Assembly: GCA_963733675.1 (NCBI GenBank)
Contig: CAVTET010000003.1
Location: forward strand, 352,001 to 416,000
DNA from: an uncultured Methanosarcinaceae archaeon
GTDB taxonomy: Archaea > Halobacteriota > Methanosarcinia > Methanosarcinales > Methanosarcinaceae
Length of the DNA stretch: 64,000 nucleotides
Direction: 5' to 3'
How positions within the stretch are numbered: the first letter of the stretch is position 1; every line of letters begins with the position of its first letter. Below are positions 11,272-23,035 of this stretch, piece by piece. The notes under the pieces are model-generated. The model made no database searches, had not been told where the DNA came from, and saw only the letters and a program-made list of their open reading frames with translations. Position numbers and translations under genes: made by a program.

Positions 11272-11701
11272 TTTACAGAATTTTTGGTACACTCCTAGTT
11301 CTATATAAATATTACTTCCTCATTTTTTTATTTGCAATGGTTGTTTGGTTAATTAGTTCCAAGTGTTCCAGGTGTTCCAAAAGCTCCATGAGTACGAGAT
11401 CAACAAGGTTTTCTTACTATTGATGGCATTTAGGAAATCCATAGATTTAATCACTAAAACTGTGTATTCATGAGAATTTGATGAATTGTCTGGTCAAATA
11501 GTGAATCTGGTTTTTCAAAAATAGTGAGGGATAAAAGAACGAGTATATAAGAATAAAATGGCTATAACTAAAATTAAAAATGTATGTAGAAGCCTACATT
11601 GGTATCTGTCCAAGAGTTTTGCTTCCAATACTTCTTTGCATATTATTCTCCTCTTTCAATGTACATGGTAAAGGTGCTCGTGACTACCTAGTCCAGAGTG
11701 G

Positions 11702-13405
11702 CTATGGTGACAAACTTCTGCGATTAGCTTTACCAACAGCCATGTTATTATGACTCACGCTATTAGAAGTTCTAGTTGACCTATTAAAGCTGTTAAAAGT
11801 TGTTGTTGGTTTATTAAAGCTTTCAAAAGTTGTTGTTTGTTTATTATAGTTTTTAAATATTGCTGTTGGTCTATTATAGTTCTTAAATATTGTAGTTGGT
11901 TTATTATAGCTCTTAAATGCTGTAGTTGGTTTATTATAGCTCTTAAATATTTTTGTTTGTTTATTATAGCCATTAAATGTTTTTGTTTGTTTATTATATT
12001 TCTTAAATGTTGCAGTTTGTTTATTTAAGCTTTTAAATGTTTTTGTTGACTTATTATATTTCTTAACTGTTGTAGTTTGTTTATTTAAGTTCTTGAATGT
12101 TGTAGTTGGCTTATTATATTTCTTAAATGTTTTTGTTTGTTTATTATATTTCTTAACTGTTGTAGTTTGTTTATTTAAGTTCTTGAATGTTGTAGTTGGC
12201 TTATTATATTTCTTAAATGTTTTTGTTTGTTTATTATATTTCTTAAATGTTGCAGTTTGTTTATTTAAGCTCTTAAATGTTTTTGTTGGCTTAGTATATT
12301 TCTTAAATGTTGTAGTTTGTTTATTTAAGCTCTTAAATGTAATTGTTTGTTTATTTACGTTATTAGGACTGGGATTTGGATGTAATGGACGTCCATTCTC
12401 CATGCTCTTACCACGAAATTCGCCATTACCATAATGCCCGGGTCCTTTATCTCCAGGACCTTTAAAGCCATTACCACTTAAAGGACGGCGATATTGTCTA
12501 TGATCCCAGGATCCCCAGCTAGGCTCGTGTCTACCGTACCACCAGCTTTTATCACCATACCAGCATCTACCGTCAAACCAAGCCCCGTCTTGTAAGAAAC
12601 TACCTCCCATCCAGAGTACACCACCAAAGAATCCTTCTGGATAGTCGATTCCTTCTACTACAACGGGTGTTGCATCTATAATCCACACAGGTGCGATTCT
12701 ATTGATCCACCAGCTTTTATCACCAATCCAATAAGCACCGTCAATCCAAACATTATCTACTAAGAAACAACCCCCACTCCAGAGTATACCATCATACAAT
12801 CCTTCTGGATAATCGGCTCCTGCTACTACAATGTTATTAACTACTACATTATTATTTACTTCATTACCTGCTACGGCGCCTCCTCCATTAACTACAACGT
12901 TATTATCTTTTACCTGGATAGAACTCGGATTAGGTACCTGTCCGAATGCTGTTACATGGATGCGATTTGGATTAGGCACCTGTCCAAACGGACCGGACGT
13001 GTACCATAGGTTACCGTCGCTTCCACGCACATAAACTGTATTGGCATCTACGGCCTGAAAATCCACCACATTGCCATCCACCTGGATGCGATTCGGATTA
13101 GGCACCTGTCCGAACGGACCTGGCGTGTACCACAGGTTACCATCGCTCTCAAGCACATAAACTGTATTGGCATCCACAGCCTGAAAATCCACCACATTGC
13201 CATCCACCGGGATGCTATTCGGATTAGGTACCTGGCCGGACGGATCGAGCGTGTACCATAGGTTACCGTCGCTTCCAAGCACGAAGGCGTTGTTGGCGTC
13301 CATGGCCTGAACTCGCGCTTTTTTTTCTGCACTTACTATTGTAGCTGCCAACGAGACAACACAATACACTATTAACAAAATTGCAATTATCCTTCGAATT
13401 TTCAT
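11702..13405 (-). CDS. Secreted modular repeat protein (propeller-like blade repeats, Trp/Gly-rich duplicated domain, basic decapeptide tail)
   Basis: 567-aa intact ORF; signal peptide; about 3 x 42-aa VDGNVVDFQAVDANTVYVLGSDGNLWYTPGPFGQVPNPNRI; 2 x DYPEG..G.LW.GG.F...W.DG..W.GDKSWW; 19 x NKQTTTFKKY-like; ggag RBS upstream. Confidence 0.9.
   Translation of the reverse strand: MKIRRIIAILLIVYCVVSLAATIVSAEKKARVQAMDANNAFVLGSDGNLWYTLDPSGQVPNPNSIPVDGNVVDFQAVDANTVYVLESDGNLWYTPGPFGQVPNPNRIQVDGNVVDFQAVDANTVYVRGSDGNLWYTSGPFGQVPNPNRIHVTAFGQVPNPSSIQVKDNNVVVNGGGAVAGNEVNNNVVVNNIVVAGADYPEGLYDGILWSGGCFLVDNVWIDGAYWIGDKSWWINRIAPVWIIDATPVVVEGIDYPEGFFGGVLWMGGSFLQDGAWFDGRCWYGDKSWWYGRHEPSWGSWDHRQYRRPLSGNGFKGPGDKGPGHYGNGEFRGKSMENGRPLHPNPSPNNVNKQTITFKSLNKQTTTFKKYTKPTKTFKSLNKQTATFKKYNKQTKTFKKYNKPTTTFKNLNKQTTTVKKYNKQTKTFKKYNKPTTTFKNLNKQTTTVKKYNKSTKTFKSLNKQTATFKKYNKQTKTFNGYNKQTKIFKSYNKPTTAFKSYNKPTTIFKNYNRPTAIFKNYNKQTTTFESFNKPTTTFNSFNRSTRTSNSVSHNNMAVGKANRRSLSP
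11781..12350 (-). repeat. 30-bp coding tandem repeat x19 with a 90-bp higher-order duplication
   Basis: Units like ttattatatttcttaaatgttgtagtttgt in exact 30-bp register; 12051-12140 is identical to 12141-12230. Confidence 0.97.
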
Positions 13406-13532
13406 TTGTATTTTACTCCATTTTTATTCAGATAAATATATTTTAATTAGATTGGGACTTGCACAGTTGAGCTAGAAAAGTATATTATTGACTAAATTGT
13501 AATTTTTTTAACCCTGATAATAATTTGTTCTG

Positions 13533-13664
13533 TCAGTGGTATGCTGGACGTAGTGGATGTACTTGGTCTTGTAGTTCAGCTGCGGCGCTTACTGCAGTAG
13601 CTGTCATTGAAATTGTTATAGAAAATGCTACCAAAATATCTAGTGCATTTTTCTTCTTTCCAAT
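13533..13664 (-). pseudogene. Relic of a small secreted protein (signal peptide plus short tail)
   Basis: IGKKKNALDILVAFSITISMTATAVSAAAELQDQVHPLRPAYH*; no ATG start. Confidence 0.35.
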
Positions 13665-14325
13665 GCTTTTTTTGTATTCAATAAACTCCAGATTTTTTTC
13701 TCAATTTGATACACGTTTAACCTGTTTTTTAGATATTCTTTTCTTTTGATAAGTTCATTCACTCAACTTTTTAGACAAGTATCGAAGATAATTTAGATAA
13801 GTTTCAATATTCGTTTTAAAAACATTTTCTTAAAATTCTAACTCAATTAATTAAAATAAAGATACTTATGACCATACTTACTCAAAAATAAAAATAATAA
13901 ATATAAGTATGTTCATAATCTTTATATTTTTAACATAATATAAATATACTAGAATCAAAATTTCGTAATATAAATATCCTAAATTCTTCAATCTAAAGAG
14001 ATACACTAATCTTAAAGTACAGTTAGATTGATTCAGCAAAAACTATGCATTCATGATAACGTGATCTTTTCATATTTGTATGGTGATAACAAAATTTAAT
14101 CCAGTTTTTCAAAAAGGGCAGGGGAAAATATTAACATCTGCTGTAATTCATGAGATCAGGGCTAAAAAATTTATGTACTAAATAGTTATATCTAATAAAA
14201 TATAGTATATGTTCAAAAACTATATAAATAATAGCATATATTTAGAATCATGTGAATAATGTTTGTGTAATCTCTAGTTAACACAGGGAAAACAAAATTT
14301 TGTGGAAAATGAAAGGAGTTCTAAT

Positions 14326-14537
14326 ATGCAGGAAATTATGAAAGTTAACATAAATGAGGCTACTTTACAAAAGTTGACTTTAACCGGAGAAACTTCAAAA
14401 GAGTTAATCTTATAGGAGTTGACTTTATAAAAGCCAACTTAAAAAAATCCTGCTTTGAAGGAGTTAATCTTGAAGGAGCTGAATTTAGAGAAGCTCACTA
14501 TTTAACATTTGAACAGCTTTCTAAAGTGAAGGCGTGA
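14326..14537 (+). pseudogene. Pentapeptide-repeat protein fragment
   Basis: aaggag RBS then ATG; after a frameshift VNLIG-VDFIK-ANLKK-SCFEG-VNLEG-AEFRE-AHYLTFEQLSKVK. Confidence 0.75.
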
Positions 14538-15070
14538 TCCCTTCCCTTCATCACGAAAATTTAGTTCTGTATCAACTAACTAGAATGAAATTACCACACT
14601 AGAGAGACATCTTCTCAGCAGTGTACTGCAAGTTCTATAATATCTGATAGACTCTATGTCCTTTTCCTATCATCACAAAAATGGGATTTATCGTTTTACT
14701 GACGCTGAAGTTTTCATACAAAAAATATGCACCTGGGAAAACGATAAAGACCTAACTCTTTTCGTGGATTTGTAAGCTGTAGTGATTTATTTGATGACTT
14801 TAAGTAATTTTAGGAATTTTATTTAAATCACTCTATTTAATTTTATATTATTTAGTACTTTTAATGAATAAATCGAATTAATTTCAAAAAAAATAAATAT
14901 TATCTATCATATTATTATTTTTAATGAAAATTCCACATGAAAAGATAGTTTTTTACTTGATTCATTGCGACTTGGTATTATAATTCATGTACTTATGTTT
15001 CTTATTATTTTGTCTGTTTTTAAAAATCATTTTTAAATGAATCTTTTTTGAACCATCTTTTTTTTATAGT

Positions 15071-16633: not shown

Positions 16634-17395
16634 ATGAAGTTTCACACGCAGATATTTACAATCTTAATTTTGGCTATTTTAGTGGCCACTGTCGCGAGCA
16701 CAAGTGCTCAACATTACAATGGAGCAAAGCAATGGAGCAAAGGATAAACAAATAACATCGTTGAAGTTTCCGAATATTATGAACAATCCCGTAACACCAT
16801 GGAATCATGAGCCCATCTATCCTGTAATTGATCCCACAGCTTATATCCATCCACAGGCTTCGGTCATTGGAGATGGGATAATCGGTGCTAATGTGATGGT
16901 TTCTCCCATGGCATCTGTCCGGGGTGACGAGAGAATGCCGATTTTCATAGGTAAGGATAGCAATGTCCAGGATGGAGTTGTGATTCACGGCCTCGAGACA
17001 ACTGATGAACAAGGTAAGCCGGTCAAAAAGCACCTTGTTGATGTCAATGATAAAAAACACTCGTTTATGTGGGAGAAAATGTTACTCTTGCCCACCAGTC
17101 CATGGTGCATGGTCCGGCTTATGTAGGTAATGATACATTTATTGGCTTTCAAACTCTTGTTTTCAAGGCAAAAGTAGGAAACAAATGTGTGCTTGAGCCA
17201 AAATCAGTAGCTATTGGCGTAACCATTTTTGACAATAAGTACATTCCAGCAGGTATGATTGTCACTTCCCAGACAGACGCTGATAAGCTGCCAATAATTA
17301 CCGAAGACTTTGCATACAAGCATACAAATGAAGCTGTAGTATACGTAAATACAAACTTGGCTAAAGGATACAATAGAGCAGCTGCACCTGCTTAA
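16634..17395 (+). pseudogene. cam: Gamma-class carbonic anhydrase (Cam) with two frameshifts
   Basis: MKFHTQIFTILIL signal; NPVTPWN.EP..PVIDPTAYI.PQASVIG, SNVQDGVVIH, LAHQS.VHGPA, HTNEAVVYVN as in Methanosarcina Cam; 13-bp duplication at 16717-16742 and a 1-nt loss near 17063. Confidence 0.93.
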
Positions 17396-22257: not shown

Positions 22258-23035
22258 TTAATTAGCCTGGAATTGCTTTATATCCACAGTCTGATCTGGC
22301 TTTACAGTACGGTAAAGATGATGGTCAGATGGAATCACTTCAACCATAGTATCGATCATTTCTTGTGGATCGCTCTGATAGGAGAAAGCATCTCTGTAGT
22401 CAGGGAGTTTTATTAAACTTTTTTCAGGATCGTACCACTGATACATATTTTCTGCTCCAGTATCATTAAAACCAGTTCTGAAGTCGCCTGGGTTAATAGT
22501 CACGACTTTCACGCCATAGGGCTCAAGCTCTTCTTTCATTGTCCAAGCAATGGTTTCGATAGCAAGCTTAGTTGCACAATAAGTTCCTACAAATGGGGCC
22601 TTCAAAATTTCAGCCATCGATGAAATCCAAATAACCTTGCCATGATTTTGTTTTACCATTTTACGCACAATTAACCCTGTGTCAGCTCTAGATGACTGAA
22701 CACATTCGTCTCAAAGGATTCATGTACCTTTCCACAGGTATCTCGACCATTGCACCACTTTTCATAATTCCGGCATTATTAACTAGAATATCAATATCAT
22801 AGGTCAGAGCATGCTGTCGATCGATATAATCTCGAATATCGAGTTTAATTACTTTAAGTTCGATAGCTTGTTCTTTAGCTTCACATCTTAACTCCCAGAC
22901 TTGGGGCCAGATTTGCACAGCAGCAATAACTTTATGACCTGCTTTGGCCAAAACAAATGCTACCCCTTTACCAAAACCATGCCCAGTACCAGTAATAAGT
23001 ATTGTCTTGCTCATAATTTTGTCCTTATTTTTCAT
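22258..23035 (-). pseudogene. Short-chain dehydrogenase/reductase (SDR), frameshifted
   Basis: TGTGHGFG and LVNNAG in the 5' ORF; YCATK and VVTINPG in the 3' ORF; frameshifts around 22670-22730. Confidence 0.92.

Follow-up and report, generated by a model that had tools for sequence, protein, structure and literature searches.

In this study, we identified a gene for a secreted mosaic protein in the window, a 64,000-nucleotide (nt) stretch of DNA from an uncultured Methanosarcinaceae archaeon (GenBank assembly GCA_963733675.1, contig CAVTET010000003.1, positions 352,001 to 416,000 of the forward strand). The open reading frame (ORF) at 11702..13405 on the minus strand is intact, starts with ATG and encodes 567 amino acids (aa), in which a signal peptide is followed by three beta-propeller blades of lectin-like type, a duplicated tryptophan/glycine-rich (W/G) module and a long polycationic tail of decapeptide repeats. 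The gene is genuine and confined to a small clade of Methanosarcina from peat and soil. For its product we tentatively favor a glycan-binding role in the matrix or at the surface, with the polycationic tail as a flexible tether, a reading to which we give somewhat less than an even chance. An initial annotation had described an intact secreted protein at this position, and both the complete ORF and a signal-peptide-like N-terminus are present.

The blades are visible at the DNA level as a 126-nt period with 2.6-3 copies (12954-13331), which corresponds to 42-aa units. A hidden Markov model (HMM) of the blade detects three full copies (aa 25-66, 67-108 and 109-150) and an 11-aa fragment (aa 154-164), and the AlphaFold model contains a partial fourth blade with two strands (163-166 and 169-172) at a predicted local distance difference test (pLDDT) score of about 70. 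A search with the whole protein returned 125 relatives with E-values down to 7e-113, all of which match the blades alone, covering 11-42% of the query. When these relatives were scanned with the blade HMM, six matches were found in 41 of 122 proteins and seven in 55 of 122. The blades can thus be assigned, on sequence grounds, to a large, mostly 6-7-bladed and uncharacterised family. The window protein itself has three blades and a fragment in place of a closed 6-7-blade ring in one chain, in agreement with the earlier remark that its blades are too few for a ring.

The call of a tectonin-type blade is supported because a profile of the relatives reaches PLL lectins and because Foldseek ranks lectin propellers high. 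The profile, built from 34 full-size relatives, matches PLL4 (PDB 8q82) with an E-value of 7e-14 and PLL with 1.4e-3 (5c9l) and 2.1e-3 (5c9o). With an alignment of 41 rows, AlphaFold reaches high confidence (pLDDT 93-98) in aa 30-150 alone; it also places a helix at aa 2-17 in the signal-peptide region. The structure prediction and fold search proposed in the initial annotation gave a confident blade part with lectin propellers as the best matches, and low confidence for the W/G module and the tail. The first five Foldseek rows for the confident blade model include a designed propeller derived from tachylectin-2, tectonin 2 (E 1.5e-4), PLL4 (2.2e-4) and tachylectin-2 (2.5e-4), with the top matches spanning 7e-5 to 2.5e-4; PLL2, PLL5 and PLL were matched as well. 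These results bear out the suggestion that the blades are of the tectonin, tachylectin or PLL lectin type. VIA-align of the full model gave no discrimination, with generic WD40-like propellers tied at a Z score of about 10; among its matches was Helicobacter pylori IceA2 (7xfp) over model residues 34-151 (94 of 94 residues, 2.5 Å). No match was obtained for the protein itself among PDB sequences, its relative P0008 found nothing meaningful there, and NCBIfam contained no match for the 567-aa protein. The sole Pfam match was Vgb_lyase (PF24684), with 28.5 bits (gathering cut-off 50) and over aa 40-137 only.

Positions that are invariant or nearly invariant among the relatives are kept in the blades, namely W50/W92/W134, D46/D88/D130, R106/R148 and F116/F140. 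The motif W-Y-T is found in the blades and in the nearest relatives P0035 and P0002, at a place where W-x-E is almost invariant in the wider family. According to PMC6943638, the sugar sites of PLL lectins lie between adjacent blades and involve Trp stacking. A homodimer prediction for two copies of the blade head (aa 28-168) scored 0.00 against a mark of 0.42 and speaks neither for nor against such a dimer.

A scan of metagenomes found three loci with the full architecture, encoding proteins of 557 aa (L018 and L019) and 517 aa (L020). The coding sequences of L018 and L019 are identical, so that three distinct sequences are available, the window included. Identity to the window protein is 90-95% in the head and 68-71% in the tail. 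The ratio of non-synonymous to synonymous substitution rates (dN/dS, Nei-Gojobori method) over the head (codons 1-350) is 0.21, 0.30 and 0.32 for the three pairs, with 24-32 synonymous and 19-37.5 non-synonymous changes; it is 0.11-0.37 in the blades and 0.16-0.40 in the part comprising the V/N-rich stretch and the W/G module. Despite the small divergence, the head is clearly under purifying selection. By blastn, the three loci are about 89-90% identical to the window, over a single block only (last row of Table 1), which extends from about 1.25 kb upstream of the gene to about 0.2 kb downstream of it; the flanks and neighbor genes differ by locus. A further, more divergent ortholog is represented by P0128, an 85-aa gene call on a 983-kb contig that is limited to the V/N stretch and the first W/G repeat; the copy is possibly broken or mis-called.

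The sequencing runs holding the gene come from soil, peat and wetland metagenomes. A 100% identical sequence was present in two DNA runs of two studies, with contigs that break inside the repeat array. In two peat metatranscriptome runs of one study there are contigs of a relative with 90-95% identity, at word depths of 40-390; they span the head and the beginning of the tail as well as the 3' end. They hint at transcription in situ but do not prove it, as the contigs show neither strand nor absence of DNA carry-over.

The tail was detected by Tandem Repeats Finder (TRF) as a 30-nt period with 19.1 copies (11782-12355). Across 19 units, T4 is present in all, N1 and K2 in 18 each, F7 in 17, K8 in 16 and T6 in 15, and position 10 is Y, L or F. 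The 197 residues of aa 351-547 include 50 K+R, 46 T and a single D+E, which gives a net charge of about +49, a pI of 10.5 and a composition of about 25% lysine and 23% Thr. The tail had been described earlier as N-K-(Q/P)-T-x-T-F-K repeats with almost no acidic residues, and this description fits the 19.7 units found here; the exact 90-bp duplication reported with it is also present (Table 1). Lys is the middle residue of T-x-T in 6 of 19 window units and in 10 of 18 L018 units, and the orthologs mostly have Pro at position 3 (15 of 18 and 13 of 14 units). A 30-aa super-period of the window tail is not kept in the orthologs. With the shallow alignment available, AlphaFold assigns the tail a pLDDT of 30-37 and neither strands nor other secondary structure.

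An open frame alone says little on translation of the tail, because the 30-nt consensus unit is stop-free in four of six frames; the stops in the arrays, the shared C-terminus behind them and the fixed motif positions do speak for translation. No stop interrupts the annotated frame through the actual arrays of the window and the two distinct orthologs, and in each of the other five frames there are 3 to 52. The homolog search for the same architecture found the tail kept in frame in all three full-length orthologs, so that it is no accident. The motif's fixed positions are alike in all three, and the arrays comprise 19.7 (window), 18.7 and 14.7 units, each ending in the non-repetitive 20-mer NSVSHNNMAVGKANRRSLSP; the count of 19.7 rests on the window assembly, because public short-read contigs break within the array. 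This 20-mer is identical in L018 and L019 and has two changes in L020, and dN/dS over the last 27 codons is 0.17-0.42. Differences between units in the annotated frame are 19 synonymous and 51 non-synonymous (17.8% synonymous expected), a weak signal because units are not independent. Between orthologs the apparent tail dN/dS is 0.53-0.60, with an uncertain alignment. Taken together, this ratio and the mild skew among units suggest that the tail is constrained in composition and pattern and not in exact sequence. To judge from the orthologs, it changes fast in unit number and sequence and keeps its motif, charge and frame. N-glycosylation of the tail is unlikely, with two sequons in the window protein and none in the orthologs.

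The W/G module had been noted as a duplicated Trp/Gly domain, and it is indeed a direct repeat of two 143-nt copies that are 76% identical at a spacing of 168 nt. An exhaustive phmmer search with aa 186-345 against 1.84 billion representatives returned five matches, comprising the ortholog fragment P0122 and four weak ones. P0122 is a 188-aa fragment at a contig end that is 84% identical across the junction of blades, V/N stretch and W/G module (P0122/P0127). The weak matches sit in Ig-like, InlB B-repeat or PKD repeats, and P0123, P0125 and P0126 (E 7e-5 to 8e-4) were set aside as uninformative, being short stretches in repeats of giant proteins. Pfam gave nothing over aa 196-310 at E-values up to 1. 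An Atlas feature search with the module had a best score of 0.80, with a WXXGXW cluster at 0.76, both within the chance range. AlphaFold of the module and linker alone (3-sequence alignment) gave a pLDDT of 28.5, unusable for a fold search. For the tail, a word-based search found no relatives among proteins of 311-993 aa and 30-310 aa, and the Atlas gave no usable match. In these searches, the W/G module and the tail have no detectable relatives beyond the orthologs.

Base composition differs along the gene. The blade segment has a GC content of 0.524 and a third-position GC content (GC3) of 0.536, at the 98.5th percentile of the 878 long ORFs in the genome (mean GC3 0.362, sd 0.065), whereas GC3 is 0.31 in the V/N and W/G part and 0.17 in the tail. 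The high GC3 of the blades against the native-like rest marks the gene as a mosaic, in which a foreign blade segment is joined to sequence of native composition. The blade segment was probably acquired horizontally and probably derives from a bacterial propeller. Among 176 other species genomes of the Methanosarcinaceae, there was no close relative of the blades and no match to the W/G module; two weak blade matches (E 1e-4 and 7e-4) lie inside unrelated large ORFs. No second copy of the gene was found in its own genome. Tail-like matches in 16 other genomes of the family (19-35% identity, many with stops) were treated as low-complexity noise, because both loci examined are unrelated repeat proteins. 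One (L005, G153:C12, 1146-2780) encodes a protein that has a signal peptide and about 20 C-N-G-N-S-x-E-Q-x-x units, and the other (L006, G137:C128, 2-2206) contains about 30 S-S-S-I-V-(D/N)-P-L-R-(G/S) decapeptides. Repeat-tailed proteins seem to be common in Methanosarcina.

Table 1. Features of the secreted protein and of its locus, in window coordinates.
Feature	Residues	Position	Strand	Basis
Signal peptide (MKIRRIIAILLIVYCVVSLAATIVSA)	1-26	13328..13405	-	Read from the translation; orthologs keep a signal peptide
Three 42-aa beta-propeller blades, PLL/tectonin-like	28-150	12956..13324	-	Tandem repeat, blade HMM, pLDDT
Partial fourth blade (…HVTAFGQVPNPSSIQVKDNNVVV)	151-172	12890..12955	-	HMM fragment, two short strands
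V/N/G-rich low-complexity stretch	173-195	12821..12889	-	Composition; kept in orthologs and fragment P0122
Duplicated 56-aa Trp/Gly/Asp-rich module, orphan	196-251 and 252-307	12485..12820	-	Direct repeat
Gly/Pro-rich linker	308-350	12356..12484	-	Composition; orthologs keep the linker
Polycationic tail, 19.7 decapeptide units N-K-(Q/P)-T-x-T-F-K-x-(Y/L)	351-547	11765..12355	-	TRF, per-position counts
Exact 90-nt tandem duplication within the tail	391-420 = 421-450	12056..12235	-	Unit-by-unit DNA listing
Non-repetitive C-terminal 20-mer (NSVSHNNMAVGKANRRSLSP) and stop codon		11702..11764	-	Conservation in orthologs; not hydrophobic
~3.1-kb block common to the window and the metagenome loci		11497..14648	.	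blastn

The layout of the protein is given in Table 1. Its N-terminus, MKIRRIIAILLIVYCVVSLAATIVSA followed by E, combines a basic n-region with a hydrophobic core and shows V-S-A before the likely cut, as read by eye. The V/N-rich stretch mentioned in the initial annotation was located, with NNNVVVNNIVV at aa 185-195. The 567-aa protein has no C-terminal hydrophobic segment or membrane anchor, and its final 27 residues (NRSTRTSNSVSHNNMAVGKANRRSLSP) are of polar and basic character. Archaeal C-terminal sorting signals (PGF-CTERM and similar) consist of a motif, a hydrophobic helix and then basic residues; such a PGF-CTERM-like signal was not found in the last 27 residues, and NCBIfam had no match. 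Cys15 is not surrounded by a lipobox, which rules out a lipoprotein. A multi-core peptide precursor is also unlikely, with no processing or modification gene nearby and a large, folded N-terminal domain. Rfam identified no RNA family in the window, and a scan for sigma-70 promoters and terminators, signals that do not apply to an archaeon, found nothing above shuffled sequences.

We also examined the surroundings of the gene. Nearby, pieces of a hexapeptide-repeat transferase occupy two adjacent ORFs (16704-17395, plus strand), and a short-chain dehydrogenase (22258-23035, minus strand) is split into ORFs of 115 and 136 aa that match profile positions 1-100 and 120-189; both are probable pseudogenes. 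A decayed pentapeptide-repeat gene lies upstream of the gene at about 14302-14560 (plus strand), with open pieces MENERSSNMQEIMKVNINEATLQKLTLTGETSKELIL and, in another frame, …VDFIKANLKKSCFEGVNLEGAEFREAHYLTFEQLSKVKA. It has the same break in L019 and L020, and a copy that is 88% identical over 549 nt is found at C5:93506-94049. The statement that the ORF is intact among many pseudogenes holds in part: split and decayed genes do lie nearby, but intact FeoB, CbiM and CbiN genes are also close. At the metagenome loci, further predicted surface proteins are found near the gene, namely a papain-family protease with lectin-like and PKD domains (L019, 7339-9615) and a beta-propeller/DUF7507 protein (L020, 7428-9968), neither with a counterpart in the window.

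About 130-300 nt upstream of the gene (13533-13700, minus strand) there is a signal-peptide-like remnant, …KKNALDILVAFSITISMTATAVSAAAE…, followed by 15 residues and a stop. This leader lacks an ATG, and a frameshift in an A-run sets it apart from L020, which has an intact 47-aa ORF there. The segment of ~130 nt has eight other copies in the genome with 74-86% identity (including G000 C3:641736, C3:543872 and C7:75622), and three of five copies examined form the beginning of intact ORFs whose products are secreted, low in complexity and rich in Lys/Gln/Gly or His. A leader shared by several such ORFs suggests that secreted repeat proteins form a family in this lineage.

In the function that we propose, a Sec-type leader would export the mosaic protein, and its blade head would bind a neutral sugar epitope in two putative inter-blade grooves, to which the Trp-rich module may add. 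The head would probably reach a closed or higher-valency form through self-association; according to PMC6805158, three-blade pieces of a 7-bladed WD40 propeller form trimers. The long flexible tail, with its charge of about +49, could then hold the protein on a polyanion by charge, cation-pi or aromatic contacts. Candidate polyanions are a putative glucuronate-containing methanochondroitin of the organism itself, extracellular nucleic acids, and humic or mineral surfaces. Methanochondroitin is described in PMC12369344 as a negatively charged polymer of glucuronic acid and N-acetylgalactosamine that is up to about 170 nm thick, and M. barkeri is reported, in bioRxiv 10.1101/2025.07.06.663362, to decorate its surface with extracellular nucleic acids. 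The protein, having neither a membrane anchor nor a C-terminal sorting signal, would act as a non-covalently attached cross-linker of matrix or surface. A bolder form of this proposal, to which we assign a low probability, is a self-completing matrix cross-linker of peat Methanosarcina, in which the acquired blades become multivalent only as two or three chains, the decapeptides glue the protein to methanochondroitin or nucleic acids in the manner of mussel glue, and unit number tunes reach, stickiness and aggregation. If so, cell aggregation would be set by a fast-evolving repeat.

Several observations weigh against the glycan-binder reading. Three blades cannot close a ring alone, and the replacement of W-x-E by W-Y-T means that the binding pocket may differ. 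In the AlphaFold model, 398 of 567 residues (70%) have a pLDDT <50, and outside the blades these low values may stem from an alignment of 3-4 sequences rather than from disorder. The tail dN/dS of 0.53-0.60 fits weak constraint as well as a compositional function. Finally, the RNA-library contigs come from a relative in a single study and are no proof of sense transcription.

Two other explanations concern the tail. It could be mainly a spacer, a Thr-rich and possibly O-glycosylated extended stalk whose C-terminal 20-mer serves as the attachment or recognition element; we consider this unlikely, although with an appreciable residual chance. Thr-rich O-glycosylated stalks adjoin the C-terminus of haloarchaeal S-layer glycoproteins, and a stalk would suit a 20-mer that is much better conserved than the preceding repeats, a unit number free to vary (19.7, 18.7 and 14.7), the 23% Thr content with Pro at position 3 in 15/18 and 13/14 ortholog units, and the lack of any predicted structure in the tail. 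However, the C-terminal peptide is short, polar and basic, without a hydrophobic anchor or known sorting motif, and the Lys content (about 25%) and aromatics at fixed positions (K2 18/19, K8 16/19, F7 17/19) would be needless for a mere spacer. Alternatively, the tail could be an ordered Thr-ladder structure (a beta-solenoid, a single-layer beta-sheet or an amyloid-like stack) that binds ice, minerals or a regular polymer lattice. The T-x-T ladder of beta-solenoid ice-binding proteins is present (T4 19/19, T6 15/19) within a strict 10-residue period with F7 in 17/19 units and Y/L/F at position 10; as read from the sequence, the polar/apolar alternation of T-x-T-F-K-x-Y suits a beta-strand and N-K-P suits a turn, and the soil, peat and wetland origin of the runs would also be compatible. 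Yet 10 residues are too few per solenoid coil and the 30-aa super-period is lost in the orthologs, x is a Lys, hard to bury, in 6/19 units (10/18 in L018), a net charge of about +49 opposes stacking, and the tail drifts fast (68-71% identity versus 90-95% in the head). The beta-solenoid or amyloid-like tail suggested earlier finds no AlphaFold strand at pLDDT 30-37, which is weak evidence given the shallow alignment, and of the ice-binding idea the ladder stands but is set against a tail of one quarter Lys. We regard an ordered Thr-ladder structure of the tail as quite improbable.

The remaining alternatives bear on the gene as a whole and on its head. The ORF could be an evolutionary accident with little or no function, formed by fusion of a bacterial propeller fragment to local low-complexity sequence in a decaying and rearranging region and so far spared from loss. 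Such an origin would account for the truncated propeller (three blades versus 6-7 in relatives), the mosaic composition, the broken genes nearby, the 3.1-kb block in differing contexts between loci, the absence of the gene from 176 other family genomes, and P0128, whose 85 aa match only part of the W/G region and which is perhaps a broken copy. Against it, the ORFs are intact in the window and at all three metagenome loci, the head dN/dS is 0.21-0.32, the tail keeps its frame and motif despite many changes, and RNA-library contigs occur at word depths of 40-390. The gene is more coherent than a pseudogene, and we give an accident little credence. It is similarly doubtful, in our view, that the blades are non-lectin, presenting a protein-binding or enzymatic surface like that of other propellers and leaving the W/G module as the true ligand binder. 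The sole Pfam match is indeed to an enzyme family (Vgb_lyase, 28.5 bits), generic WD40-like propellers tie in VIA-align at a Z of about 10, W-Y-T stands in place of the wider family's W-x-E, and relatives are fused to Astacin (P0007), Peptidase_C1, Trypsin (precomputed Pfam) and other domains. But the Vgb_lyase score falls short of the cut-off of 50, the PLL lectins are the only solved relatives reached by a sequence profile, and the best Foldseek rows are lectin propellers.

Very little is known of the proteins in or on the Methanosarcina matrix, and this gene offers a candidate matrix- or surface-binding protein of uncultured peat methanogens. The genes for methanochondroitin synthesis are described as unidentified in PMC12369344. 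A sub-ring propeller fragment kept under selection bears on the evolution of propellers from few-blade pieces. In addition, the gene is a natural case of domain capture across domains of life and contains a coding minisatellite whose length differs between close relatives. These observations do not overturn current views, and the function is inferred.

Finally, the protein was compared with known systems. A full-text literature search pairing Methanosarcina with tectonin found no papers, and a broader search showed no archaeal secreted polycationic lectin-propeller protein among the matches listed. The initial annotation had singled out a characterised family with the whole architecture as decisive; the matches cover the blades alone, and no characterised family could be matched to the entire protein, which combines a known kind of domain with orphan and low-complexity parts. 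The PLL lectins of Photorhabdus are alike in blade type, and their D-G-x-L-W core is present in each blade here. They differ in having seven blades in one chain, as opposed to three and a fragment, and they bind fucose or O-methylated sugars between blades; for the window protein, sugar binding is predicted, with the comparison confined to residue conservation, in which W-Y-T differs. The window protein also has a signal peptide, about 400 further unrelated residues and an archaeal host. Tectonin 2 of Laccaria bicolor (5fsb), tachylectin-2 (1tl2) and the design 5c2m are the top Foldseek matches, at an identity of only 10-18%. Designed oligomeric propellers have reportedly been built from tachylectin-2 fragments (PDB 5c2m). 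In the WD40-blade designs of PMC6805158, sub-ring fragments fold by homo-oligomerisation, and the window protein likewise has fewer blades than a ring.

The nearest blade relatives are the uncharacterised metagenome proteins P0035 (74% identical) and its cluster mate P0129. They have three and four blades, respectively, followed by an unrelated C-terminal domain, and the window protein likewise has a short array, so short, length-variable blade arrays recur in this subfamily. Both relatives lack a signal peptide, the W/G module and the decapeptide tail, and their C-terminal domain is different. With regard to attachment, mussel foot protein 1 is a secreted adhesive of tandem decapeptides rich in Lys, Thr, Pro and aromatics, and the GW modules of Listeria InlB are polycationic non-covalent surface anchors. 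No sequence relation of the window protein to either was found (Pfam is blank for the W/G module and the tail), and its host is archaeal; its likeness to them lies in a possible mode only, that is, attachment by charge with no covalent anchor.

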